The notes under the pieces are model-generated. The model searched no databases, was not told the origin of the DNA, and saw only the letters and a program-made list of their open reading frames with translations. From Rhodospirillaceae bacterium (lineage in GTDB: Bacteria; Pseudomonadota; Alphaproteobacteria; Rhodospirillales; Rhodospirillaceae): DNA of 64,000 bases. Below, piece after piece: positions 26,578 to 56,105 of the stretch; position 1 is the stretch's first letter; the number at the start of each line of letters is the position of its first letter. The translations under genes and the position numbers were made by a program. The stretch spans positions 7,691 through 71,690 of the forward strand of contig JBJLGL010000014.1 in assembly GCA_045564915.1 (NCBI GenBank), read 5' to 3'.

Positions 26578-27024
26578 TCAGCTTTCCTCGGCAGAGACTT
26601 TTTCAGGTCTTGCCACTTCAGCTTCCTTCGCAGTCGCCTTTTTAGCAGTCGCCTTTTTAGCAGTCGCCTTTTTAGCAGTCGCCTTTTTGGCAGTCGCCTT
26701 TTTGGCAGTCGCCTCTGGCTTTTTGACAGGATCAATATCTGTAATTTGAATGACGGTCAAATCCTGCCGATGACCAGCTGTCCTTTTGTAGTCCTTGCGA
26801 CGTTTCTTCTTGAAGACAACAATCTTATCGCCGCGCGACTGTTCAACAATTCTGCCCTTAACACTGGCTCCGGCAACATTAGGTGTCCCAGCCTTGTCGC
26901 CCACCATGAGCACCTCATCAAAGGTAACGGATGCACCAGAAACTCCGGCAACTCGTTCGACGGTTATGACGTCATCCTTTGTTACGCGGTACTGTTTGCC
27001 GCCTGTCTTTATGACTGCGTACAT
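26578..27024 (-). CDS. rplU: 50S ribosomal protein L21 with a repetitive Ala/Lys/Thr C-terminal extension
   Basis: The canonical start [14 protein letters not shown] is at 27024; the track ORF extends to 27153. The C-terminus is KKPE(ATAKK)5[19 protein letters not shown]. Confidence 0.9.
26630..26716. repeat. 15-bp tandem repeat, about 6 units (gcagtcgccttttta/g), inside the rplU 3' end
   Basis: Units start at 26630, 26645, 26660, 26675, 26690 and 26705. The first five are near-identical, differing only by a/g. Confidence 0.9.
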
Positions 27025-27239
27025 GATCGACCTTCCGAGAAACGAAAACAGCGGGACCACGCCCGCTCGATTTGGCGGAAATATACGCACCCAACCCTCT
27101 GAGTCAACGGTTTGGGCTCTAATCTGCAGTATTCTTAGCGCTATACGTGCCAAATCCTGCCAAAAAAAGTAATTTAGCCTAATTGAAGCATAAAACAGCT
27201 TACTGTAGTGTCCCTCTCCCCTTCAATCGATGACCTTGC

Positions 27240-27329
27240 GGAGAGGTGCCGGAGTGGTCGAACGGGGCGGTCTCGAAAACCGTTGCGCGCGCGAGTGTGC
27301 CGTGGGTTCGAATCCCACCCTCTCCGCCA
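27240..27329 (+). tRNA. tRNA-Ser (anticodon CGA), canonical copy
   Basis: GGAGAGG acceptor stem, anticodon loop CUCGAAA, long variable arm GCGCGC-GCGA-GTGTGC, T arm GTGGG-TTCGAAT-CCCAC, discriminator G, encoded CCA. Confidence 0.9.
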
Positions 27330-27601
27330 TTTACCCGGAATAAGTTCTTTTTATCAATAGGTTATAATATGCCCTTGTCTGCATGGGCGCTAGCTTTGCC
27401 ACTGCCAGGCGTTTTGGTTTCCTTATAAATACAGGCGAAATGCAAGCGAAGCAGGTGAAGCAAGCGTATCCCATATGGGGGAGTTGGGACAGTGGTACAT
27501 CCAGCCGCAGCAGTTAGTGCAGGCGACGAAGAGAAATCATGTGATACAAATACCGGTGGCCGTTAGCATGTCGTAAACATTGGATTGTAGAAGGTGAGAC
27601 C

Positions 27602-28306
27602 GTGAGCGAACTCAATTACGATGATATTGTCCGCATTCTTGATCAAAAGGGATTCACTGTTAGTCCGAAAGCCGCGGTGCGGGATTATGATAAATATCTG
27701 GATCAGAGCGAGTTTCGCTACATTCTTTGGCTTGACCGTATCTTCCAGAAAATTCAGCGTGTTCCTGGTCATATTGTTGAAATCGGTGTTGCACGCGGGC
27801 GAAATGCCCTCATCTTTGGTCACCTCATCAAGATGAATGGCGAAGATAGCATCAGGAATTACTATGGCTTTGATACCTTCGAAGGATACACCGAAGAAGA
27901 TTTACGCAGGAGCCCTCACCTATCTGCTGATGAATGGAAACAAACTACCTTTGATTTCGTCAGGGACCGTATCCATCTACAAGGTTTGAGCAATTCCTGC
28001 CATCTCTTTAAGGGCGACATTAAGGAGGTTGCACAAGATTTTATCAATTCTAAGCAGGCAAAATTCAACCCGGGAAAAATGAAGGTGGCATTACTCTATA
28101 TTGATTGTAACGCTTATTTACCGGCAAAGTTTTCCATGGATTTTTTCAAAGACTACATGTCACCGGGAGGCATTGTTTGTATTGACGAGAAATTACAAGG
28201 TGGAGAAATAGAAGCGTTAATGGAATTTTGCAGTGAGAACGGTTTAATCGCGGAAAAAGACCCGGGTCCATTCGGCATGCCAGCCTATACCGTTTTCAGG
28301 CCGTAA
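27602..28306 (+). CDS. TylF/MycF-like SAM-dependent O-methyltransferase
   Basis: 234 aa with a GTG start. Contains GHIVEIGVARGRNA, YGFDTFEGY and LLYIDCNAY, resembling the macrocin O-methyltransferase family. Confidence 0.65.
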   Translation: MSELNYDDIVRILDQKGFTVSPKAAVRDYDKYLDQSEFRYILWLDRIFQKIQRVPGHIVEIGVARGRNALIFGHLIKMNGEDSIRNYYGFDTFEGYTEEDLRRSPHLSADEWKQTTFDFVRDRIHLQGLSNSCHLFKGDIKEVAQDFINSKQAKFNPGKMKVALLYIDCNAYLPAKFSMDFFKDYMSPGGIVCIDEKLQGGEIEALMEFCSENGLIAEKDPGPFGMPAYTVFRP

Positions 28307-28357
28307 AAGTGATTAATCCGTATTAGCGCCTTTTGCCATTTTAGCATGCCTAGACAC

Positions 28358-28709
28358 TCACTGCGGCTCTGAAAGATATAGCGTTTTTGTGAGAAGTGCT
28401 TGATCATGCTTGACCATATTTTCCATTATACGCGGTATGATCGTTGCAGCCTGCCATCCACATATCTGTTCAATGAGGTTTGGTTTGAAAACCAAGAATG
28501 GCCTTACCTCAACTTTTTCGCCATCAAAGTAATCGCGCCAATCTAATCCGACAGCTTCAAACGCCACATCGAGAAGGTCCTTGAGAAACGTGGCTTTGCC
28601 GGATGAAGTAATAAAAGCTTCATTGAGGCCCATGTCGGCCATCATGGCCAGTAGCTCCGGTGGTCAAAACTGTTTCTAGTTTACCGAGATTAGAATCAGT
28701 ATCTGTCAT
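28358..28709 (-). pseudogene. Gmd-like NDP-sugar 4,6-dehydratase/epimerase remnant with a large internal deletion
   Basis: The ATG at 28709 overlaps the upstream stop (ATGA) and encodes MTDTDSNLGKLETVLTTGATGHDG, then a stop at 28622-28620. A shifted frame (28645-28358) encodes only the C-terminal ~90 aa (...AFEAVGLDWRDY...CGWQA...MVKHD). Confidence 0.6.
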
Positions 28710-29974
28710 CCCGTAACAAGAGTAAATTCTGGCAGGGGAAACAATAGCGTTCCGCCCCCATCCAAGAAGGATCGTTCTCGTCGAATAATCTCGTCACGAA
28801 AATGCCAAGGGAACACCACAAATATATCCGGACCCATGGCGCGGCCTTTAGCCTCAGATACGATGGGAATGTTGGTGCCCGGTGTGCGGCAACCGAATTT
28901 TCTCGGGTCCCTCTCGGCAATAGCTGGCATGAGGTCAGGCGTTATACTACAATATTGCAGAAGTACGTTTCCCTTCGTCGACGCGCCGTAGCCCAAAACC
29001 ATCCGACCATCCGCATTAGCTTTGAGAATATAGTTGCGAAACCTCTCTCTGTGACTAATAACCCGTTCGCAAAACTGTGCCCATGTATTGGTGTTTTCTA
29101 GCCCCATTTGATTCTCTAAATCTAACAATCTGTTAAGAGCTACACTGTTAGGCCGGTAATCAGAGTCATCTTGGGCAAAGAGAACAGAAAAGCTGCCACC
29201 ATTAACTGAGTTTCTGCGTGTATCTATAGCTTTCAATCCAACTTTCTTGCCAAGATCCATCAGTATTTTGAGTGTGAGGTATGTGACATGCTCATGGCAG
29301 ATGGAATCGTAGCAAAGCTGGTCAAACATAGCCCCAGCGTGGCTTTGTTCTGTGAACCAAACGCCATCATTTGCCAAAAGGCTCTGGACGTCAGTCATAA
29401 AATCCGACAAGGCCTCGATGTCGTAAAGCATCGCTACTGACGTTATAGCTTTGAATTGTACGCCTGGCCTGACACGCTTAACCGCTTCGGTTGAGAAAAA
29501 GTCTACTTCAAGTGCGGCTTCAGATACATACCGATCACGATATTGCTCTGCAGATGGGTCTATGCCCGTGAGCAACAAGTCTTGATTCTTAAAATTCGAG
29601 AGAAGCGTGCCATCATTGCTGCCTATATCGAGAATAGCGTCACCGGGGCGGAGGCGGGCCCACCCGGATACATACCCGGCAATATCGGCTAGGTGACTGC
29701 GCATGGTTGCCGTGATAGCCGAAGCGTAGCCGTATGTTTCGCCATACATCTCTGATGGTGCGAAACTTCGAGAAAGTTGTACGAGGCCACAACCTTTATT
29801 TTTATCGCCAGCTTCACATATGACCAATCCCACACAACCCGTTGAGGGATCTGGTTCTCCGGATGCCGGGAAACGTCCACTTAGTGCTTGGTACCCCAAG
29901 TCCAAGATGGGACGCAGAACCTGACTACCGCAGGCACGACAATTCAGGACGGGTTCGTCAACTATACTAGTCAC
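28706..29974 (-). CDS. NDP-hexose C-methyltransferase-type enzyme (zinc-ribbon N-domain, class I MTase, C-MT C-terminal domain)
   Basis: 422 aa. Has N-terminal CRACGS...LDLGYQALSGRF...CGLVQL and a central DIGSNDG SAM motif. The architecture resembles TylCIII/EryBIII-type enzymes. Confidence 0.7.
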   Translation of the reverse strand: MTSIVDEPVLNCRACGSQVLRPILDLGYQALSGRFPASGEPDPSTGCVGLVICEAGDKNKGCGLVQLSRSFAPSEMYGETYGYASAITATMRSHLADIAGYVSGWARLRPGDAILDIGSNDGTLLSNFKNQDLLLTGIDPSAEQYRDRYVSEAALEVDFFSTEAVKRVRPGVQFKAITSVAMLYDIEALSDFMTDVQSLLANDGVWFTEQSHAGAMFDQLCYDSICHEHVTYLTLKILMDLGKKVGLKAIDTRRNSVNGGSFSVLFAQDDSDYRPNSVALNRLLDLENQMGLENTNTWAQFCERVISHRERFRNYILKANADGRMVLGYGASTKGNVLLQYCSITPDLMPAIAERDPRKFGCRTPGTNIPIVSEAKGRAMGPDIFVVFPWHFRDEIIRRERSFLDGGGTLLFPLPEFTLVTG

Positions 29975-30006
29975 GCAACCGAACTTTCCATGTTTTCACC
30001 TTGTAC

Positions 30007-30816
30007 TTACTCTGAATTGGTCAATGCTCTTGCAAGGTCGACAACCTCTGCCCGCACAAAATCATCAAAAAAATTTGGCGGGCGATCAAAACAATCCGCT
30101 AGAGAGAGATCCTCATTGCGCACATAGAAGCGATTAAGGCCATCATAGTATGCGAAAGTATAATTGGCTTCCAACAAAATAAACTCCCATTGCTCCCAAT
30201 TGGGTCGATCAGTCTCTGGATAGGTGGCTTCAGCAAGCACAATTCTCGGCCGATGACGTTGCCAGTCACCGCCTACAATTACGTCATACTCAGCACCTTC
30301 GACATCTATTTTTAGAAAATCAATTGTCCTTGATGCGTACTCGTCCAAAAGAGAAGCTAAAGTCCGAGTAGGTACCTCGCACTCCCGAATTTCCAGCCCT
30401 CTCTTTTTATAAGAGGCCGCCAATTCAGCAAGAGCCGTTGTACGGGAAGTATTTGGGAGCGAATAGATTTTGGTGTCTCCGTCTTTCTGGCCGATAGCAA
30501 AACACAAATTGGTGTCTTTCGGTCGCAACTGATTAAAAAGTTCAATATTTTTTTCGTCCGGATCGATGTTCACACCCGACCAACCGCGCAATTGAAAGTG
30601 CTGAGTTACAGAATTCTTCACTGGGTGAAAAGCACCAATGTCGACAAAGAAACCGTTTGTTTGATCAGGAAAAGCGCGGCGCAAAAGTACATCTTCATAA
30701 TTCTGGGCATAGGAAACCATAGCGCCGTCATTCACTCTTGCTATCACCATGGATGCAAGGTTATAGGCCGACGAACGCTGAGAATTGTCCGGTAAACCGC
30801 TCATAATTATAACCAC
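30007..30816 (-). CDS. FkbM-family methyltransferase
   Basis: 269 aa with FVDIGAFHPV and IDFLKIDVEGAEYDVI. Confidence 0.8.
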   Translation of the reverse strand: MVIIMSGLPDNSQRSSAYNLASMVIARVNDGAMVSYAQNYEDVLLRRAFPDQTNGFFVDIGAFHPVKNSVTQHFQLRGWSGVNIDPDEKNIELFNQLRPKDTNLCFAIGQKDGDTKIYSLPNTSRTTALAELAASYKKRGLEIRECEVPTRTLASLLDEYASRTIDFLKIDVEGAEYDVIVGGDWQRHRPRIVLAEATYPETDRPNWEQWEFILLEANYTFAYYDGLNRFYVRNEDLSLADCFDRPPNFFDDFVRAEVVDLARALTNSE

Positions 30817-31122
30817 TCCGCGACGCTCATCAATTTACTACAACGTCCAGATTCTTAGAAAAGGGGTAAACTGGCGCGTATTGTGCTCTCATTCTTTGTT
30901 TCAAAGACAAAAATCTCTGTCCCTCATCTATTCTACGTCAAATGGCAATATTGACGATACCGCAAACTCACATGGCCCCTTGATTAAAATACTTTGTGAC
31001 GCCACTTGTTGATGACCTAGATTAGCACCTATCCCAATTGTTTAGTATTTGCGAGGCATGAGGACCTTTATATTTTTTTTGTCTGCAGAGATTTTTACGA
31101 CCTCTAGGACTATAATATTCGA

Positions 31123-32586
31123 CTAAGATTTTGGGAAAAAATTTGCCGAAAAAAGATGATAATAAATTGTGGGATTATCTTGAGACAGCTCCTCACCCAT
31201 CATACTTGCAAACTCTGGGAGCGTGTTATTAAGCTGCATGACAGTCTCAGACCAATTTCCGATAGAGAGGCGTTTTTCTGTCTCGGCAAAAAGGCCTGTT
31301 AAACGAGCGCGTAATTTTAAATCAAGTTCATGGCCAAGAATCTCATCCTTCATTTCCAAAACGTTCTCAGCATTACTCGAGAGCAAGATAAACGAAGCTC
31401 TTAAAACTTTAAGGATAAGTGGGTCTAGGTTGTCATCTTGCTCAGCAATGATTTCCCATTTCTTTTGCGGATCATTTTCTGAGAAGAACTTTTCTAAACG
31501 CTTGAGACTGCTATCCAATGACGAACTCAATTCTCCCTTTTCACACGCCTGCACAATTGACTCTATTGATTTTCCGAATCCGAACGATATGAGATGCCCC
31601 ATAGCGTCTAAACAGTATTCTGAAACACCCTGTTTTGGTTCTGCCGCACTTGCGGTGACTTGGTAATGGATGGCATTTGCTGGCCTACTCGGAAGTTTTC
31701 GTGGAACTACAGATTGAACATCAAAATGGTGTAAATTGAAGTCCGAAAAACATTTTGCTCCACTGATTCCAGGAACACTTTGTCTGTTTACAAAATAGAA
31801 AATTCCAGTCGCAGTAAGGTGCTTAAGAATCCATTGCGAATACGCCTGCGCAGTTTTTAGAGGCATTTCGCCCATGCTAGCCACGTTAATGACAAGATCG
31901 AAGTCCCGCCTCTCTATCTTGTCGATAATGTCTGGCACACAAAAATTTAAGTCGCGGTCACATGACAGTGTGTCCGGCTCATCGGCGAATACTACGCCAT
32001 GAGTCTTACCCGGCATGCAAAGCGGAAGATACATGGAAGCAAGATATAGATTCTCAGGCAGGTCAATGACGGTATAGGAGCTTATATCAAGGTATTCGTG
32101 CAAAGCGTACGCTGTCGAGCCGAATCCAGCGCCGATCTCGCACACTTTCAGATCCGATGTCTTGGCAGAGAAAGCATTAAATCTCTCTGCTATGGTGTAC
32201 GCAGAGACAACATTCTTTGCAAAGTTTGCGCTGAAAAGGTTCCCTTGGTATGAAAACACTTCAGGTGTTCCCAAAGTTGGCTCAGTAACCGTTTTAAAAA
32301 TATCTGCGGGAACATCATACAACATCAGCAGCCTGAGCATGGACTCAAAAAAGCGCTTTCTTTCTTGATACCCTGCTGTTGAATCCCCCAGGCCTACAGC
32401 ACCACCGACCGACGAATTTCTAAAAAGGTGAAATTTTTCCTCGGACATAAAGTTTGGTCTGTTGCTGAACAAACCCTGCCATAACTCAGATACACTGGCA
32501 TACACGTTATCGGTAGCACCTTTAGAAAGGAGCTCAAACTCTTCCCGACGTCGTTTAGATAGATTAGCAATGTGCTTAAAATCCAT
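31123..32586 (-). CDS. class I SAM-dependent methyltransferase with a ~170-aa helical C-terminal extension (sugar O-methyltransferase-like)
   Basis: 487 aa with VCEIGAGFGSTAYAL and TVIDLPEN. GGAG lies 10 nt upstream of the ATG. Confidence 0.55.
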   Translation of the reverse strand: MDFKHIANLSKRRREEFELLSKGATDNVYASVSELWQGLFSNRPNFMSEEKFHLFRNSSVGGAVGLGDSTAGYQERKRFFESMLRLLMLYDVPADIFKTVTEPTLGTPEVFSYQGNLFSANFAKNVVSAYTIAERFNAFSAKTSDLKVCEIGAGFGSTAYALHEYLDISSYTVIDLPENLYLASMYLPLCMPGKTHGVVFADEPDTLSCDRDLNFCVPDIIDKIERRDFDLVINVASMGEMPLKTAQAYSQWILKHLTATGIFYFVNRQSVPGISGAKCFSDFNLHHFDVQSVVPRKLPSRPANAIHYQVTASAAEPKQGVSEYCLDAMGHLISFGFGKSIESIVQACEKGELSSSLDSSLKRLEKFFSENDPQKKWEIIAEQDDNLDPLILKVLRASFILLSSNAENVLEMKDEILGHELDLKLRARLTGLFAETEKRLSIGNWSETVMQLNNTLPEFASMMGEELSQDNPTIYYHLFSANFFPKS

Positions 32587-33026
32587 ACGTCAGGGCTCTC
32601 CTATTAAATCAAAATCATGAGGCATAGCTAAAAACTGCCCCACCTTATGCATGCTAATTATTAGATCACGCACTACCATTACGCCGATTATGCGTAGTAA
32701 TTCAATGCGTATAACTAGATTTTTAGGGCCATATCTGGTGAGTATAGTTGCGTCGCGAACCGTGAATACCTCAGAAGATACGCTGGCGGTTATGACGAGA
32801 ATCCCAACTCCTTATCCGGTCTGCTAATCAAACAATATACCATGCTACTGCATAGCCAGCCATTACATGCGGTAAAACAATGTTGTTTAGGGATGAATAA
32901 GCGGGGATTGCTATGACTTCCGGATCAGCGATAATCCCGAGGAAATAGATTTTTGAGTAATACTACCAGCAGGGCAATACCTACAGTCAAGAATGACCTA
33001 AGTTGGTTCAATTGCTGACTGGAGTA

Positions 33027-35024
33027 TTACAAACGCTCGACCTCTGAGACAATATCCTCGCCTGCCTGCTTAGGGATTGTCGGCGCACGCTCGGTTTCAT
33101 AAAAATAAGAACCCGTGCGGTTCCCAAACCATACGACCTCGCGGCACCAGTCGTCGAGCTTCTGCCATTGGTCTTTAGCTCTTAGAACCCGAACTCTTTC
33201 TGATGCTCGCCCACCATTCAGCTCTACTTTAACAACACTCTCCCATAGATCTAGAACCTGCGTTTTCAGAGGAACCACTAAGTCCTCTCCCACAAATGGA
33301 ACCTTTAGAAGAACTTTATTAAGATGGATAGCTTCGTCGATAAGCAACTCATCCATCTCGATGTTTGACGCAGCAACATACTCCAAAAGAAGTCGTTTTG
33401 ATTCATCGTAAAACTGATCGATTCTGCCATCCGCGACAATTCTCATCACCATAATTTCATCAGGTTTCCAAAATGAATTTAAAAAGCGCTCCTCATGGTA
33501 ATATTCGCCACTACCAGACTGTATTGCTTGAGCATGCCCCCGTAAAAAATCACCCACTTCAGCAATAAGCGGATAATCAGACGCATCTGCATCGAGTATA
33601 TATTCTATAATAGACCGGTATTCGCCTTCACCCGCCTGATTAACCATTACCATCGGTATTTGTAGCATTTTATCAAAGTGGAGAAAGTCAGCCATCCAGG
33701 CGAAGACTCTGGTCTTTCGCCACTCGGCCGGAGGCATAGTCTTAGTCGAGACAACCAAATATTGATATTCTTGTACATCATCTTCGTGTTCAACATTTTC
33801 TCCATATCCGTTGACGACCGGTATTCTGACGGTTTCCATCTTATGGGTTTTCTGATACCTGGGGTCACCCATTTCGGCATTCGGCAATATACTAAGGTTG
33901 TTGAACCGAATTCTATTGTGCTGGCCGTTGGAGATCAGATCATCCACACTACTAGCGAAAGTATCGTATGTATCGCCCGGAAGCCCCAATATCAGCTCTG
34001 AATACGTTTCGATATTGTGGTGGGTAAAGCGTTCCTGAAGTGTCTGATAACTATCGAGGCTAATGTTTGCACGTCTTATGATCTCAAGGGTTTTGGGGTT
34101 CGTGCTTTGCATCGATAAAGACACTCCCTTACTCAGACCCGCATCAGAAAGTATCTTCTGCACTTCAAAGGAACGACCGGTAGCATTCTTGGTGTTTTGA
34201 ACAGAGAAGATAACCGGATAACCGGATCGACGTTTCTGTTCCGCCATTTGTTCAGCGATGGTTTCGTCCCTGGGCAGAATGCCAAAATTGGCATCACAGC
34301 AGTAGATGAACGGTATACGGTTATGTGAAAACCACTCGATTTCCTCTAGAAGCCGCTCCGTTCCAAAACGAGCCACCTTCGATGCCGTATTGGAGCCCCA
34401 GTCGCAAAACGTACAACTGAAAGGACATCCGCGGTTAGTTTCCCATAATGCCGTCCATTTCTCGTCTGGATTCTCCTCGAACAATTTGTCAAAGACACCC
34501 GTTAAGTACGGCGAAGGAATATCATCTAAATTACGCAACCTTGGAGCGCCCAATGTAGTCACGACCTCACCATTGATACGGTATGAAACACTTGAAATAT
34601 TGGTCCAGTCGTTTGATGGATAACTTTCAAGCAGATCAAGAAATACTCTTTCTCCCTCGGCGTGCACAACAACATCAATCATGGCATTGTCCGCTAAGAA
34701 CTCATCTGAGCGAGAAGGGACTTGAGGTCCGCCGACAATAATCAATGTATCCGGGCTTTGCTCTTTAACCCTCCTTGCAACCTCTAGAGAAATTCCCTCA
34801 TTCCAAGTATACAAGCTAATAGCTACTATATCTGCCTGCGCTAACTTACTAACGATATCTCTAACAGGTTCTCGTTTGAAGATTGGTGTCAAAAATTCAT
34901 AGGACTCTGGTCGGGATGAATATGTGACAGCATAGGATTGCAGCATCCCTACGGAGTAAGGAACCCAACTTTGACCTGCAAAGCCCCCGTTGATTTGAAC
35001 CAAGCCTATCTTAGTCTGTTCCAT
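33027..35024 (-). CDS. B12-binding-domain radical SAM protein (class B, probable methylase)
   Basis: 665 aa. The N-terminal cobalamin-binding-like region is ADIVAISLYTWN...LIIVGGPQ, and the CX3CX2C cluster is NRGCPFSCTFCDWG. Confidence 0.8.
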   Translation of the reverse strand: MEQTKIGLVQINGGFAGQSWVPYSVGMLQSYAVTYSSRPESYEFLTPIFKREPVRDIVSKLAQADIVAISLYTWNEGISLEVARRVKEQSPDTLIIVGGPQVPSRSDEFLADNAMIDVVVHAEGERVFLDLLESYPSNDWTNISSVSYRINGEVVTTLGAPRLRNLDDIPSPYLTGVFDKLFEENPDEKWTALWETNRGCPFSCTFCDWGSNTASKVARFGTERLLEEIEWFSHNRIPFIYCCDANFGILPRDETIAEQMAEQKRRSGYPVIFSVQNTKNATGRSFEVQKILSDAGLSKGVSLSMQSTNPKTLEIIRRANISLDSYQTLQERFTHHNIETYSELILGLPGDTYDTFASSVDDLISNGQHNRIRFNNLSILPNAEMGDPRYQKTHKMETVRIPVVNGYGENVEHEDDVQEYQYLVVSTKTMPPAEWRKTRVFAWMADFLHFDKMLQIPMVMVNQAGEGEYRSIIEYILDADASDYPLIAEVGDFLRGHAQAIQSGSGEYYHEERFLNSFWKPDEIMVMRIVADGRIDQFYDESKRLLLEYVAASNIEMDELLIDEAIHLNKVLLKVPFVGEDLVVPLKTQVLDLWESVVKVELNGGRASERVRVLRAKDQWQKLDDWCREVVWFGNRTGSYFYETERAPTIPKQAGEDIVSEVERL

Positions 35025-35095
35025 ATTCTATTCCGTAAGTCGCCATGACCGGGAACTCCAGTAACCAACTTTCTGTAAAAGCAATGAGATCAGCC

Positions 35096-36199
35096 CTAAT
35101 ACTTTACCTTTTCGGTAACATCATATTTCAGAATCTTGTCCACACATTCGCTCAAAAAAAATTGTTCTTCAGTTCCAACTGTCTTGTAAAGACGGGCACG
35201 CTCTTGAATGTGCGGCAGTTGAGCGCCGTCATGCCCTAAAGTCCCTAACAATCTTCCTCCAACAATCCGTGCAAACCCCTCCTTTGCAACTGCTAACGCA
35301 TCCTGAATAGCCACGCCGTCAACATCAGATATTATTCGGGCAATATGATTCACGAACAAATTAGCATCATATTGCCAATGGGGCCTCAATATTGCCTCAG
35401 TTATCGATCTATCCGTATCATCTAAGATCCCATCTCTTATATTACCTTCGTGTTTCTGCCTAACAGCCTGCAGGTCATTTATCAGTCGAATCTTACCCTT
35501 TAATACTGGCGTAAACATCCATAAATACTCAGCCGAAAAATGAGGGAAATTTATCTTGTAAGCATCTGGTGGCACACACTCAATGTATCGGTCTGCCCTT
35601 GTCATCAGATACATCGTATTACAAAAATGTCTAATGAAGTGAAAAAGCCTATTCGTTGCTGTTGCTTCCATGTTCTCAAAAGTTGCATGCAACATCCCAG
35701 TATCTGGCACCACCCCGTTAACATAATCCCTTTTGTTGAGCTGATCATTAAGCCAAAGAAATACATGGTCCCCTAGAACACCCCCAACGTCTTTATCTTT
35801 ATCCATGATAATGCTGGCTTTTTCTAAGGTAATCGGTATCGGAATATCATCATCACACGTCATTGTGACGTACTTTGTCTCCACCATCGTAGCGGCCACA
35901 GCAATTGCCTGATTTAAACTTATAGCCAGCGGCATACCCGGGGACTTTGGCACTGAGATATGTTCGACATGATAAGATGGCTCCAAGTTCTGAATCAGAT
36001 CATTAGTGATGCCAAACTCTCTACGTTCACTGGAATCAGACAAAAACAATTGGCCGCCAAAATCTAACTCATCCAGCCCGCCGATCATTCTCGCCAAAAA
36101 ATGAGATCTTCGGTAGGTTGGAACAATGATTGTAAAATCTTTACCGTACATCATTAATTTCCTCGCCCCCTCAATCAGAAGGCTGTTTATACGTTCCAT
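35096..36199 (-). CDS. glycosyltransferase family 2-like protein (tentative)
   Basis: 367 aa with TIIVPTYRRSHFL near the N-terminus and an acidic TCDDD motif. The rest is unrecognised. Confidence 0.4.
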   Translation of the reverse strand: MERINSLLIEGARKLMMYGKDFTIIVPTYRRSHFLARMIGGLDELDFGGQLFLSDSSERREFGITNDLIQNLEPSYHVEHISVPKSPGMPLAISLNQAIAVAATMVETKYVTMTCDDDIPIPITLEKASIIMDKDKDVGGVLGDHVFLWLNDQLNKRDYVNGVVPDTGMLHATFENMEATATNRLFHFIRHFCNTMYLMTRADRYIECVPPDAYKINFPHFSAEYLWMFTPVLKGKIRLINDLQAVRQKHEGNIRDGILDDTDRSITEAILRPHWQYDANLFVNHIARIISDVDGVAIQDALAVAKEGFARIVGGRLLGTLGHDGAQLPHIQERARLYKTVGTEEQFFLSECVDKILKYDVTEKVKY

Positions 36200-36395: not shown

Positions 36396-36485
36396 GGAGA
36401 GGTGCCTGAGTGGTCGAACGGGGCGGTCTCGAAAACCGTTGTGCGCGCGAGCGTACCGTGGGTTCGAATGCCACCCTCTCCACCA
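36396..36485 (+). tRNA. tRNA-Ser (anticodon CGA), second divergent copy, possibly impaired
   Basis: Shows 84/90 identity to 27240-27329 and has the same anticodon loop. The variable arm is GTGCGC-GCGA-GCGTAC. The T arm GTGGG-TTCGAAT-GCCAC has a G:G mismatch at the loop-closing pair. The discriminator is A. Confidence 0.65.
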
Positions 36486-54131: not shown

Positions 54132-56105
54132 ATGGATCAAGATCTTACAGCTGCCGACAAGGCCTTCAATTTAGGTGACTTCGATAGAGCAGAAATCCTG
54201 TATGCTGAAGCCATGCGGGCCAAGCTGAGGCATCCGAGCACACTGAAAAATCTTGCAACAATTGCACTCTATAAGAATCGTTCCGATGTCGCATTGCGTT
54301 TAACCAAAGAAGTACCTTCTGCAAGCCAGGAATCCGCGGAATTTCTTCACTTACACGGTTTGAGTCTACTCACTGCAGGGTATGTCGACAAGGCTGAGGC
54401 TGCCCTAAGGCACGCCATTTTATTAGCGCCAGACGATAGCCGATTAGCAAACACTTTTGGGCATGCTCTTTTACAGTCAGGACGATGCGAAGATGCCGTC
54501 CAACAATTCTATAAGGCCGCTAAGGCGAACGATGGGGTCATCGAATACTGGCGAGACTTAGAACAAGGCCTAGGGTCTTTATCTAACAATCTTTTTCTAA
54601 GAAATAACATTGGCATCCTTACAGACCTTCTAGGCATACAAGCGGTTAATCGTAAGAAGTGCTCAATACTTGCCCGACAGATAGCACAACCTCTTCTTGA
54701 GGAATTATATGTAGTCTTAAGAAGTAACGAATTTGGGGCTATCCAGGAATGGATAGCGGATCGATATCTAGAAGATAATTTTCAACTTCTGATAGCGCTT
54801 GTCGAAAATACGCCATGTGCAGACCAGGCTCTGGAAAATTTTCTCACAACTTTGCGGACAGTATTTTCTAGTGAAGTTAATAATATCAAAGAAATTAGCT
54901 CCCTAAATTTTCTGGCGGCATTGGCGTCACAATGCATTTTAAACTCTTATGCATTCTACATAAGTGACTCCGAGAATAATCTGGCGAGTAGACTTCAAAA
55001 AGATGTACAAGAAATATTAACAAACGGCGGAGTGGTAAGCCCGCAATATATTGCGTTGTATGCTACGTACCGCCCGTTACACACACTGAGAGATGTAGAA
55101 AATATCATTGAAGCTTTTCCTCTAGAGGAAGGCATAAAAACTCGGTTTACTAAATTGTTTCGTATGCAAATTACGGAACCAATTGAAAGACAAAAACGTC
55201 GTAGTGAAATTCCTGCCCTGACTGGAATAAGCAACGAGATTTCCATTCAAATTCGGGATCAATATGAGGAAAGTCCATATCCACTTTGGCAAGGAGCTAG
55301 ATGGCAGACTAACGAACTGCCTATTGGGTTCCGGCAATCAACCCCAAATCCAATAAACCGCAATCGAGGGGAAGGTCACCGTGTCCTTATTGCCGGCTGT
55401 GGTACAGGACAACATGCCTATGTATACAGTCTCGCTCTGCCAAAAGCTGATATCACCGCAATAGACCTTAGTCTTGATAGTCTAGCCTACGCAGAACAAA
55501 AAAAATTAGAGCTTTGTATGCAAAACGTAACTTTCTGCCAGGGTGACATCCTTCGCCTTCCTGAAACCGGACTTGAATTTGACGAAATATCCTGCATTGG
55601 AGTGCTCCACCACTTACAGAATCCCTTAGATGGTTTAATAGCATTAAGAAGAGTATTCACGGGGGAAGGTGAATTTAGGCTAGCCGTATATACAGAAAGT
55701 GGGCGTGCTGATGTCGTTTCAGGGATCAAATTGCGCGAGCAAGAGCGTTTTTCTTCAACACCAAAAGATATTCGCAGATTCAGAAAACGTGTTCTTGAAT
55801 TAGATGAAAAACACCAAGCAAAGAGGCTTGTAAAATGGGGGGATTTCTATTCTCTTGATGCTTGCCGAGACCTTATCTTCAACGTGCAAGAACATCGGTT
55901 TAATCTAATGACACTATCGAAGCTAATTGTAGACGCGGGATTCGTACTCTCCTCCATAAGAACGAAACCTCGGGTCAAGGACCTCTATCACAAGAAGTAC
56001 TCTGATACAGGTGATGAGATAAATATTCAGAATTGGTATATATTGGAGCAAGAGAATCCCGGCATCTTTGGATCAATGTATGATGTAAACTTAAGTATTA
56101 GATAG
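54132..56105 (+). CDS. TPR-repeat protein fused to a class I SAM-dependent methyltransferase
   Basis: 657 aa with N-terminal TPR-like repeats and a C-terminal VLIAGCGTGQHA...ISCIGVLHHL. Confidence 0.7.
   Translation: MDQDLTAADKAFNLGDFDRAEILYAEAMRAKLRHPSTLKNLATIALYKNRSDVALRLTKEVPSASQESAEFLHLHGLSLLTAGYVDKAEAALRHAILLAPDDSRLANTFGHALLQSGRCEDAVQQFYKAAKANDGVIEYWRDLEQGLGSLSNNLFLRNNIGILTDLLGIQAVNRKKCSILARQIAQPLLEELYVVLRSNEFGAIQEWIADRYLEDNFQLLIALVENTPCADQALENFLTTLRTVFSSEVNNIKEISSLNFLAALASQCILNSYAFYISDSENNLASRLQKDVQEILTNGGVVSPQYIALYATYRPLHTLRDVENIIEAFPLEEGIKTRFTKLFRMQITEPIERQKRRSEIPALTGISNEISIQIRDQYEESPYPLWQGARWQTNELPIGFRQSTPNPINRNRGEGHRVLIAGCGTGQHAYVYSLALPKADITAIDLSLDSLAYAEQKKLELCMQNVTFCQGDILRLPETGLEFDEISCIGVLHHLQNPLDGLIALRRVFTGEGEFRLAVYTESGRADVVSGIKLREQERFSSTPKDIRRFRKRVLELDEKHQAKRLVKWGDFYSLDACRDLIFNVQEHRFNLMTLSKLIVDAGFVLSSIRTKPRVKDLYHKKYSDTGDEINIQNWYILEQENPGIFGSMYDVNLSIR

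Follow-up and report, generated by a model that had tools for sequence, protein, structure and literature searches.

A genomic islet at tRNA-Ser(CGA) with a probable methyltransferase-rich tailoring arm detached from a larger surface-glycan cluster

What does a compact block of methyltransferase genes do when no genes to export or polymerise a product accompany it? Such a block lies in a 64-kb stretch of Rhodospirillaceae DNA (the window, 64,000 nt), and the original prediction suggested that it may be a portable, previously undescribed module. The ORFs that it listed were present, and their family assignments were upheld by Pfam, NCBIfam and PDB profile and sequence searches (Table 1). The cassette encodes four class-I methyltransferases: TylF-type, FkbM, NanM-type (TIGR04371) and a TylC3/TcaB9-type NDP-hexose 3-C-methyltransferase (3-C-MT). 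The predicted number of five is reached only by counting a radical-SAM enzyme with them. The reported lack of export and polymerisation genes was correct for the insert and for the scanned ORFs of at least 150 aa throughout the window.

Table 1. Features of the islet and its boundaries, in window coordinates
Feature	Coordinates	Strand	Evidence
Direct repeat, left copy (tRNA + 18 nt upstream), 112 nt	27222..27333	+	Repeat search and alignment
tRNA-Ser(CGA), left copy	27240..27329	+	ARAGORN; Rfam tRNA 57.9 bits
TylF/Methyltransf_24-type O-methyltransferase, 234 aa	27602..28306	+	Pfam PF13578 9.8e-11, PF05711 1.4e-08
SDR 3' remnant (95-aa ORF), GMD/RMD-family pseudogene	28358..28645	-	C-terminal 87 residues left
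SDR 5' stub, MTDTDSNLGKLETVLTTGATGHDGRHGPQ*	28620..28709	-	Pairwise alignment to L009
NDP-4-keto-6-deoxyhexose 3-C-methyltransferase, 422 aa, Zn-ribbon + class I MT + Methyltransf_14	28706..29974	-	Pfam, PDB
FkbM-family methyltransferase, 269 aa	30007..30816	-	PF05050 4e-25; TIGR01444 68.5 bits (cutoff 37.7)
NanM-type (TIGR04371) sugar O-methyltransferase, 487 aa	31123..32586	-	NCBIfam 82 bits (cutoff 44)
Conserved non-coding leader 5' of NanM-type gene	32596..32766	-	tblastn similarity to L009
Cobalamin-dependent (class B) radical-SAM methylase, TokK/CysS/KedN5-like, 665 aa	33027..35024	-	Pfam B12-binding + Radical_SAM
GT-A (GT2-like) glycosyltransferase, TIGR04440	35096..36154	-	TIGR04440 84.5 bits (cutoff 70)
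tRNA-Ser(CGA), right copy	36396..36485	+	ARAGORN; Rfam 42.5 bits only

The cassette is bracketed by two tRNA-Ser(CGA) genes, overlooked in the original prediction, within a 112-nt direct repeat whose copies are 90% identical at a spacing of 9156 nt. The left tRNA gene adjoins rplU, is intact and is probably the functional copy of the two; its D-arm, T-arm and discriminator are those of the single tRNA-Ser(CGA) of a relative (L065), and its variable arm differs. The right copy has the variable arm of L065, differs uniquely at three conserved positions (D-stem G to T, T-stem C61 to G, discriminator G to A), and appears to be degenerating. GC content of the cassette was 0.447 against 0.478 ± 0.014, the lowest of any 9-kb stretch in the window. 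The relative is syntenic from SBP_bac_5 to rplU, has no cassette, and loses synteny at the tRNA. A ~9.1-kb genomic islet has inserted here at the tRNA-Ser(CGA) gene beside rplU, and its sequence is 100% identical in contigs of two independent sequencing runs. No integrase, mobility or partner genes were found among the scanned window ORFs that are 150 aa or longer. Because the window contains no dehydratase, nucleotidyltransferase, flippase or acceptor genes, islet function depends on unseen loci.

We compared the cassette with related loci to assess how its genes are arranged elsewhere. Its distinct genomic contexts number at least four, with at least three besides the window, in related Rhodospirillaceae MAGs in which the short-chain dehydrogenase-type gene (SDR) is intact. 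Locus L009 has all seven genes, the SDR intact, in the layout of the window but with ccoN/OsmC flanks; in L003 the cassette lies within a NeuB/CMP-transferase locus; and in L008 the gene set is rearranged, without the NanM-type gene. Together with the tRNA repeat, the low GC content and the unoccupied site in the relative, these contexts bear out the predicted portability. A core of GT-A, 3-C-MT, SDR and FkbM genes, usually with the TylF-type gene, was found across phyla, mostly beside a NeuB/CMP-transferase (nonulosonic-acid) block and sometimes beside GDP-mannose supply or ABC exporter genes. It adjoins ManC and PMM in Maridesulfovibrio ferrireducens, and is also carried by L019, L020 and L021; an ABC exporter is present in L019, and L020 has one together with ManC, canonical Gmd and a GDP-fucose-synthase-like SDR. 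The idea that the system is without precedent and has neither a recognisable precursor nor core biosynthetic enzymes found no support in this comparison: the same genes sit inside larger glycan loci with the NeuB/CMP-transferase block, and the cassette largely corresponds to a fragment of a locus found intact elsewhere, with exporters in L020 and L019. From the insertion, the recurrence in other contexts, and the position of the core beside NeuB, GDP-mannose or exporter genes, we therefore conclude that the cassette is not a self-standing system but a mobile arm that serves to tailor the product of a larger surface-glycan locus, itself uncharacterised.

The NeuB neighbours suggest another possible pathway, which we consider unlikely. 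The C-MT and SDR would make a 6-deoxy-3-C-methyl-hexose nucleotide, and the TIGR04440 protein would be no transferase but an NDP-sugar hydrolase (like PseG or LegG) that frees the sugar. A NeuB-type synthase would condense the free sugar with PEP, with CMP-activation to follow, yielding a branched nonulosonic acid; and the O-methyltransferases and radical-SAM enzyme would decorate the nine-carbon acid, the window cassette relying on NeuB genes located outside the window. Of the six distinct non-window contexts with 10-kb flanks, five (L003, L008, L019, L020, L021) do have the core directly joined to genes for NeuB, a DHDPS-like aldolase and CTP_transf_3; in the remaining one, L018, there is a PEP-condensing enzyme of the KdsA type. 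Viral contig L038 contains the run Gmd - SDR - C-MT - DegT - NeuB - MT - CMP-transferase - Maf-like, with radical-SAM genes flanking, and a NeuC/LegG-type Epimerase_2 gene lies inside the flanks in L021 only. However, no NeuB gene is near the cassette in the window or in L009, the GT-A protein, whose structural neighbours are true transferases, contains a canonical DxD, and we know of no C-methyl-branched nonulosonic acid. Adjacency to NeuB could mean only that both sugars share one glycan.

Our preferred account, in which we have moderate confidence, is that the islet's genes are the tailoring arm of such a larger locus and contribute to a pathway whose substrates, step order, acceptor and radical-SAM target we infer from the family assignments. 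A 4,6-dehydratase encoded elsewhere would supply an NDP (probably GDP)-4-keto-6-deoxyhexose; the TylC3/TcaB9-type enzyme would methylate it at C3, and the cassette's GMD/RMD-family SDR would reduce C4. The GT-A enzyme would move the resulting 6-deoxy-3-C-methyl-hexose to a glycan or lipid-linked acceptor from other loci, and the FkbM, TylF-type and NanM-type enzymes would O-methylate it to a virenose/vinelose/nogalose-like, largely permethylated residue. The TokK/CysS-like enzyme would attach at least one methyl to this sugar, or to the nucleotide form that precedes it, at an unactivated carbon. The product made and transferred by the cassette is most likely an O-methylated 6-deoxy-3-C-methyl-hexose (virenose/nogalose-like), and the GMD-like SDR suggests GDP, not dTDP, as its carrier. 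The cassette had been predicted to per-methylate an acceptor made elsewhere; this would be only part of its role, because the 3-C-MT and SDR are expected to act at the sugar-nucleotide level and build the cassette's own donor sugar. A route from GDP-mannose through Gmd, a TylCIII-type C-methyltransferase and a reductase has been proposed for Coxiella virenose (PMC3539893).

The individual proteins fit these assignments. The 3-C-MT matched Pfam Methyltransf_13/23/14 (E 1e-46) and aligned over its full length with the solved structures of TylC3 (4rv9, 6.9e-48), TcaB9 and KijD1. The TylF-type gene is convergent with the minus-strand operon, and its product is 85%, 67% and 68% identical to the orthologues in L009, L003 and L008. 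In the 487-aa protein, residues 100-266 match the NCBIfam model 'putative sugar O-methyltransferase, NanM' (TIGR04371) and are followed by a ~220-aa C-terminal extension; Pfam and PDB sequence searches with this protein gave no match, and orthologues occur in L003, L009 and L012 only. Within the window, its conserved non-coding leader lacks both a start codon and an ORF, and it matches no Rfam family. The protein described as GT2-like is a genuine GT-A enzyme by TIGR04440 and by its AlphaFold model (pLDDT 92.7, GT-A fold), with a DDD motif at least 90% conserved among 80 homologues. The start listed for its ORF, 36199, probably lies 15 codons upstream of the real one, as homologues begin at Met16 (36154). 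The best Foldseek matches of the model were SpsA, the WrtF fucosyltransferase, RmlT and TarS; WrtF uses GDP-fucose and RmlT dTDP-rhamnose, a possible hint to the donor.

The SDR gene is disrupted in the window. Full-length orthologues have 331-334 aa; the remnant shares 61% identity with the L003 protein (334 aa) over residues 241-327 of the latter (E 3e-36) and is 75% identical to that of L009. Pairwise alignment showed that 656 bp, corresponding to L009 11547-12202, were lost and the frame shifted, with the junction at 28646/28647 within the microhomology GATGGCCG. The gene had been called a dead Gmd-like dehydratase; dead it is, but the enzyme, which combines the GMD fold with an NHES motif, was more likely a 4-ketoreductase than a dehydratase, because S-S-Q stands in all intact orthologues (S-S-H in L021) where GMD has its catalytic T/S-x-E (T-S-E). 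The deletion has inactivated the SDR, and unless another reductase substitutes, the pathway is therefore blocked or altered here; it is probably crippled in this genome, and the sugar described above is probably not made in this strain.

This damage raises the possibility, which we regard as doubtful, that the islet is only what remains of a fragment gained by horizontal transfer, of no use to the cell and with its remaining genes heading for loss. Besides the frameshifting deletion, the apparent degeneration of the duplicate tRNA and the lack of integrase or partner genes in the 64 kb would fit such decay. So would the dN/dS of the SDR remnant, 0.25 against 0.10 between intact SDR copies; the six intact genes gave 0.07-0.18 against L009 (TylF-type 0.08, 3-C-MT 0.07), pairwise values that average long branches and cannot show selection persisting since the deletion. 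However, those six genes are full length, free of frameshifts and premature stops, and 74-92% identical to their L009 orthologues, and the sequence is the same in both sequencing runs. The deletion may be recent or polymorphic rather than a product of long decay, because one of the two identical contigs ends ~17 bp from the junction.

As the islet is a detached, partly broken piece of a larger cluster, its chief interest is its uncharacterised vitamin-B12 radical methylase. The C200-x3-C204-x2-C207 motif of this protein is invariant in homologues, of which there are more than 6799, and its PDB matches include TokK (3.7e-97) and CysS (5.9e-59). The best NCBIfam model was KedN5, at 260 bits against a cutoff of 700, which places the protein outside the curated KedN5 subfamily. 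In contigs of both cellular and viral origin, homologues adjoin genes for bona fide Gmd, C-MT, NeuB or NTP-transferase. Antibiotic pathways are the source of the nearest characterised relatives of the radical-SAM enzyme (TokK, CysS, KedN5) and of the 3-C-MT (TylC3, TcaB9, KijD1), as they are of the TylF, FkbM and NanM families, and one could picture the cassette tailoring a glycosylated polyketide or aminoglycoside-like compound. We judge this very improbable: neither the window nor any related locus has PKS, NRPS, aminocyclitol or resistance genes, and the neighbours (NeuB, CMP-transferase, ManC, Gmd, Ugd, GT2/GT4, ABC exporters) are typical surface-glycan genes. An anti-phage defence system centred on the radical-SAM enzyme has, in our view, hardly any likelihood. 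PADLOC matched this protein to candidate family PDC-M51A (1.4e-29) and the 487-aa methyltransferase weakly to mad2 (1.9e-05), but these matches do not extend beyond the generic B12/radical-SAM core and SAM-binding fold, PADLOC matched none of the other four proteins, and the gene neighbours are sugar-nucleotide enzymes throughout.

Among known systems, the GDP-virenose branch of Coxiella burnetii phase I LPS, comprising Gmd, the TylCIII-type C-MT CBU_0691 and a reductase, is an in-silico model only (PMC3539893). It likewise pairs a TylCIII-type NDP-hexose 3-C-MT with GMD/RMD-family SDRs in a Gram-negative surface-glycan locus, for a 6-deoxy-3-C-methyl-hexose product, which in our case is predicted from the families. 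Unlike the cassette, it has no B12 radical-SAM enzyme or O-methyltransferase trio, and its genes lie within a contiguous O-antigen region rather than a tRNA-flanked islet.

The nogalose, mycarose and tetronitrose tailoring sets of antibiotic-producing actinomycetes (TylC3, TcaB9, KijD1) share the 3-C-MT fold over its full length; nogalose tailoring uses SnogG2 plus three O-methyltransferases. The proposed order would also be common to both: the 4-keto intermediate is C-methylated, its keto group is reduced, and the sugar is transferred and O-methylated several times. In contrast to those sets, the cassette has an alphaproteobacterial host and no aglycone genes, a GT-A (TIGR04440) instead of a GT-B/GT1 glycosyltransferase, a GMD-like SDR suggestive of GDP rather than dTDP, and relatives neighboured by NeuB/CMP-transferase genes. 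The radical-SAM enzyme shares with TokK, ThnK, CysS and KedN5 a B12-binding domain and a CX3CX2C radical-SAM core, but its context is sugar-nucleotide and surface-glycan genes, whereas theirs are carbapenem, cystobactamid or enediyne clusters.

Finally, the islet resembles tRNA-associated genomic islands in its insertion at a tRNA gene, flanking direct repeat, GC content below that of its flanks, absence from the relative's syntenic site, and surface-structure cargo. It differs in having no integrase or other mobility gene and in a repeat that takes in the whole tRNA gene and the 18 nt upstream of it, not the 3' half alone. Homologous (Campbell-type) recombination between tRNA alleles would fit this arrangement at least as well as site-specific integration.

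ORF listing and profile searches recovered every gene that the original prediction had named in the ~9-kb insert, and its products include members of the NDP-hexose 3-C-methyltransferase, class B radical-SAM, TIGR04440, TIGR04371, FkbM and TylF families. The predicted total of five methyltransferases holds solely when the radical-SAM enzyme is counted among the methylases; four are conventional. A GMD proper, a KedN5 subfamily member and a self-contained O-antigen or capsule locus are not present. The C-methyltransferase (C-MT) has the three-part architecture of TylC3, TcaB9 and KijD1, with an N-terminal Zn-binding domain (PF08421, 2.9e-10), a class I SAM domain (PF13489, 9e-11) and a C-terminal Methyltransf_14 domain (PF08484, 1.3e-46). 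These solved enzymes align with it end to end, and its residues 9-420 align with residues 10-416 of 4rv9 (6.9e-48). By sequence it is a member of the NDP-hexose 3-C-methyltransferase family, predicted to methylate C3 of an NDP-4-keto-6-deoxyhexose. The other conventional methyltransferases exceeded the cutoffs of their models: the NanM-type protein for TIGR04371 (82 bits, cutoff 44, residues 100-266, the C-terminal ~220 aa lying outside the model), the FkbM protein for PF05050 (89.3 bits, cutoff 22.7) and TIGR01444 (68.5, cutoff 37.7), and the TylF-type protein for PF05711 (34.8 bits, cutoff 23) and PF13578 (42.9, cutoff 26.3).

Features of the cassette and of the surrounding window
Feature	Position (nt)	Strand	Length
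15-nt tandem repeat, six copies	26612-26729		
tRNA-Ser(CGA), left copy	27240-27329		
Methyltransf_24/TylF protein	27602-28306	+	234 aa
C-terminal quarter of a 331-334-aa GMD-family SDR	28358-28645	-	95 aa
C-MT: Zn-binding, class I and Methyltransf_14 domains	28706-29974	-	422 aa
FkbM methyltransferase	30007-30816	-	269 aa
TIGR04371 'putative sugar O-methyltransferase (NanM)', no Pfam match	31123-32586	-	487 aa
Conserved stretch upstream of the NanM-type gene	32596-32766	-	~170 nt
B12-binding and radical-SAM enzyme	33027-35024	-	665 aa
TIGR04440 glycosyltransferase domain	35096-36199	-	367 aa
tRNA-Ser(CGA), right copy	36396-36485		
ORF with TPR repeats and class I methyltransferase domain	54132-56105		657 aa

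The insert is bracketed by two complete tRNA-Ser(CGA) genes, overlooked in the original prediction, that lie in a 112-nt direct repeat (90% identical) taking in the 18 nt that precede the tRNA. Between the two genes lie 9.07 kb, the window's lowest-GC 9-kb stretch (0.447 versus 0.478 +/- 0.014); cassette GC is below that of the flanks in comparison loci L009 and L003 too. A second low-GC stretch of the window (0.428) holds the 657-aa ORF. The left flank is a conserved rplU-rpmA-obg-proB-proA-nadD-rsfS-rlmH block, in which the tandem repeat encodes the KKATA-repeat C-terminal tail of ribosomal protein L21; on the right are FecR/ECF-sigma/TonB-receptor genes, then housekeeping genes. An empty site was located through Obg homologues: in the relative L065 (Obg 76% identical) the whole left block is syntenic, a single tRNA-Ser(CGA) stands beside rplU, there is no cassette, and synteny with the window stops exactly at the tRNA. 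A FecR-based metagenome scan for the empty site returned just 33-34% relatives. The insert thus shows the tRNA-derived direct repeats, atypical composition and absence from a relative's syntenic site by which tRNA-associated islands are recognized.

In the variable arm the two tRNA copies differ by compensatory changes (C-G to T-A). The right copy's variable arm is that of the single L065 tRNA (L065:8935-9024). At conserved positions the right copy alone is altered at three sites (D-stem, C61 of the T-stem, and discriminator G to A); it lacks the G53-C61 pair and the G73 discriminator, and scores 42.5 bits (Rfam). The left copy scores 57.9 bits; its variable arm is different, and the rest of it is intact. 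We infer that the cassette arrived through recombination within the tRNA gene, and that the left copy now serves as the functional gene and the right one is degenerating. Among the ORFs between 27330 and 36395 there was no integrase or other mobility gene. Because the repeat comprises the entire tRNA gene, site-specific integration is no more likely a route than homologous (Campbell-type) recombination.

The same cassette occurs in other contexts. In three loci (L009, L010 and L011; 81-87% nt identity) the seven genes are all present and arranged just as in the window, the TylF gene again convergent, and the SDR (331 aa) is intact; ccoN-like, OsmC and membrane-protein genes flank them, and there is no tRNA. 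In L012 and L013 (89% nt identity) the upstream junction is different again. L003, a MAG and the sole return from a scan of the genome collection with the glycosyltransferase alignment, has the seven genes on one strand (61-82% aa identity), and the NCBI-annotated radical-SAM protein comes from a Rhodospirillaceae MAG. Together with the tRNA repeat, the GC minimum and the empty site, these contexts bear out the prediction that the module is portable. Nearest relatives vary by gene: the window's glycosyltransferase gene is closest to that of L012 (dS 0.22) and distant from that of L009 (dS 1.07), and in the radical-SAM gene the closest pair is L009 and L012 (dS 0.34), each farther from the window copy. 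This pattern indicates a mosaic cassette that has recombined internally among strains.

Elsewhere the genes sit in larger loci. On one side of the L003 cassette are a NeuB-AP_endonuc_2 fusion, a GMD-like SDR, a DHDPS-like aldolase, a CMP-transferase and a 509-aa protein, and on the other are more methyltransferases (CmcI, TylF), a second TIGR04440 protein and PhyH dioxygenases. A rearranged cassette in L008, without the NanM-type gene, adjoins two NeuB genes, a CMP-transferase, a DHDPS-like gene and a LegC-type aminotransferase. We inspected four distant loci containing members of the glycosyltransferase family (L018-L021). Maridesulfovibrio ferrireducens (L018; WP_092159354) has SDR-C-MT-FkbM divergent from the glycosyltransferase gene, a KdsA-type gene, ManC and PMM. 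L019 contains a NeuB fusion/SDR/DHDPS/CMP-transferase block, an ABC exporter and IS elements; L020 contains ManC, Ugd, canonical Gmd, a GDP-fucose-synthase-like SDR and an ABC exporter, followed by C-MT-SDR-GT-FkbM-TylF-PhyH and the NeuB block; and in L021 (Tara) C-MT-SDR-GT is followed directly by NeuB, CMP-transferase, DHDPS, aminotransferase and a second NeuB. The glycosyltransferase gene is beside C-MT in 4/4 of these loci; the SDR described below, an FkbM gene and a TylF/Methyltransf_24-type gene are each present in 3/4, and the radical-SAM gene in 0/4. The NanM-type gene is limited to the window and to L003, L009 and L012; L018 has a 27% relative. This distribution defines a core of glycosyltransferase, 3-C-methyltransferase, SDR and FkbM genes, usually with TylF, to which the radical-SAM and NanM-type genes are clade-specific additions.

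As predicted, genes for export or polymerization are missing: no Wzx/Wzy, Wzm/Wzt, Kps or initiating transferase was found in the insert or in the scanned window ORFs of at least 150 aa. ABC exporters are carried by the related loci L004, L019 and L020. The proposal of an undescribed, self-standing system was not sustained, because the cassette is one piece of a larger locus that is complete elsewhere. Within the NeuB (nonulosonic-acid) block, a ~460-510-aa protein without a Pfam or NCBIfam match follows the CMP-transferase (L003:7139-8668; L008:14838-16367). The two copies are 45% identical and have a 22%-identical homologue at L021:17593-18984; L019 and L020 have unannotated genes of similar size at this position, with no detected homology. 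This protein may be a novel transferase that acts on the CMP-activated acid.

The SDR, a GMD/RMD-family gene, had been called a dead Gmd-like dehydratase. It is GMD-like and broken by a deletion; its active site points to a reductase. Relative to the intact L009 gene it lacks 656 bp, a gap lying between two copies of GATGGCCG, and a 29-codon stub in another frame and the 95-aa remnant are left, so that the window has no intact GMD (TIGR01472) ORF. Even the intact L003 orthologue scores 146 bits with this model (equivalog cutoff 415). The intact orthologues are similar to P. aeruginosa GMD (1rpn, 1e-37), with the YxxxK and NHES motifs preserved and the catalytic T/S-x-E motif missing. The T-S-E triad of 1rpn is S-S-Q in five close orthologues (L009, L003, L008, L018 and L020) and S-S-H in L021; Glu is retained by the canonical Gmd of L020 and by 'SDR350' of the NeuB block. 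In GMD this Glu is the general base for water elimination, and from its absence we infer that the SDR is probably a 4-ketoreductase (RMD-like), the step required after 3-C-methylation.

The deletion probably blocks or alters the product in the window genome. An independent metagenomic contig (Logan; 100% identical to the window) has one end within the right tRNA copy and the other ~17 bp from the deletion junction (window 28646-28663), a hint that the deletion may be recent or polymorphic in the natural population. That the islet is a functionless relic is improbable, though to be taken seriously: one gene is broken, and the six others are intact, with pairwise dN/dS of 0.07-0.18 against L009. 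A relic would be partly compatible with the model that we favour below.

The TIGR04440 protein, which probably starts at Met16, scores 84.5 bits with its model (cutoff 70) and falls below the Pfam GT2 gathering threshold (PF13641, 17.8 bits versus 27). An AlphaFold model built from 80 diverse homologues reached a pLDDT of 92.7, with a confident GT-A fold (five close sequences gave 32.7). Its nearest solved structures are SpsA, WrtF (a GDP-fucose enzyme), RmlT and TarS (Foldseek probability 1.00), and the DxD residues D101-D103 (352-aa numbering) are at least 90% conserved across the 80 sequences. An exhaustive HMM search placed the family in 679 clusters at 50% identity, just 14 of them at E<=1e-30. 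The recurrent NeuB genes raise the alternative that a NeuB-type synthase takes the branched sugar as its precursor and that this protein acts as a hydrolase; given the glycosyltransferase fold and conserved DxD, we consider this unlikely.

The radical-SAM enzyme has the class B (cobalamin-dependent) arrangement of an N-terminal B12-binding domain (PF02310, residues 56-131) followed by a radical-SAM core (PF04055, residues 196-362), whose CX3CX2C cysteines (C200, C204 and C207) are invariant in 10 homologues. Its closest characterized relatives, TokK (3.7e-97) and CysS (5.9e-59), methylate sp3 carbons iteratively. With the KedN5 model (NF033712) the enzyme reached 260.6 bits against a cutoff of 700, covering profile positions 61-400 of 624. 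A natural-product tailoring cassette could be read from such relatives and from the TylC3-like C-MT; homologues of the enzyme lie in polysaccharide loci, and we regard this reading as very improbable indeed. The family is large (>6799 matches at E<1e-10, hundreds of them full length at ~50% identity). In Ferrovibrio terrae and other genomes it stands beside aldo-keto reductase, NTP-transferase and GHMP kinase genes inside polysaccharide loci, and in Alphaproteobacteria and other bacterial MAGs members adjoin Gmd, C-MT, NeuB, NTP-transferase or GT genes. Full-length homologues (30-49% identical) are encoded by 43 IMG/VR viral contigs, often directly adjoining bona fide Gmd, and 19 of the 43 have a GMD-type SDR within 10 kb. 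One viral contig (L038, 54-11935) reads Maf-like - CMP-transferase - MT - NeuB - DegT - C-MT - SDR - Gmd (439 bits) - radical SAM, with two radical-SAM genes around the Maf-like-to-Gmd run, and another (L040, 5948-16643) reads SDR - radical SAM - Gmd - DegT - GTs - Ugd. These neighbours argue that the substrate is a 6-deoxyhexose nucleotide or a derivative.

We found no characterized member of the family within such glycan loci, and our literature searches returned no link between cobalamin radical-SAM enzymes and surface glycans (O-antigen, LPS or capsule), nothing on TIGR04440, and nothing on nonulosonic acids together with radical SAM; the one tangential item was an uncharacterized radical-SAM gene in the C. 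jejuni HS:19 capsule region. A bolder and decidedly speculative reading, to which we give little credence, is that the ~650-aa TokK/CysS-like family is an unrecognized class of sugar-nucleotide C-alkylases for cell-surface and phage-encoded glycans that, with the TIGR04440 protein as a sugar-nucleotide hydrolase, would feed a NeuB synthase and yield a new class of C-branched, permethylated nonulosonic acids.

Within the 441-bp gap between the radical-SAM and NanM-type genes, the ~170 nt upstream of the latter are conserved with L009 (60%, translated level). In the window this stretch has neither a start codon nor an ORF; it matches no Rfam family and may be a regulatory leader. A riboswitch or leader RNA was sought in the gap with Rfam at E<=1, which gave the two tRNAs alone; the 60-63-aa ORFs in the gap of L009 and L012 were rejected as genes, as their frames differ and the protein is not conserved. 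Promoter and terminator scans gave counts no different from those in shuffled sequence. A defence system has a next-to-negligible probability, the PADLOC matches that might suggest one being generic only, and a phage-family reading was likewise set aside, the sole PHROG match being a generic methyltransferase, for FkbM.

We lean, by a modest degree of confidence, towards the cassette as a mobile tailoring arm that makes, transfers and methylates a branched sugar. An NDP (likely GDP)-4-keto-6-deoxyhexose produced elsewhere would be converted by the cassette into a 6-deoxy-3-C-methyl-hexose and transferred by the GT-A enzyme; the sugar could be O-methylated up to three times, the radical-SAM enzyme contributing a further C-methyl. 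The predicted product is a surface-glycan residue resembling virenose or nogalose. Bacterial surface glycans are rarely capped by C- and O-methylated deoxysugars; such caps are strongly antigenic and shape recognition by phage, complement and grazers. The window alone is of modest biological importance; its cassette is detached from partner genes and one step is broken. Interest rests mostly on the uncharacterized radical-SAM/glycan association, which suggests a so far unexplored chemistry, radical C-methylation, on sugars of primary metabolism, and less on this partly broken copy. Enzymology has defined targets in the intact cassette of L009 or L003 and in the locus of Maridesulfovibrio ferrireducens, a named species with an isolate-type genome record.

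A gene set with the look of an antibiotic sugar-tailoring cassette instead recurs, as a mobile arm, in the surface-glycan loci of different phyla. Its logic is that of the proposed Coxiella virenose branch (PMC3539893) and of actinomycete deoxysugar tailoring sets. The cassette differs in its GT-A transferase, its GMD-like reductase, its recurrent link to nonulosonic-acid genes and its B12 radical-SAM methylase.
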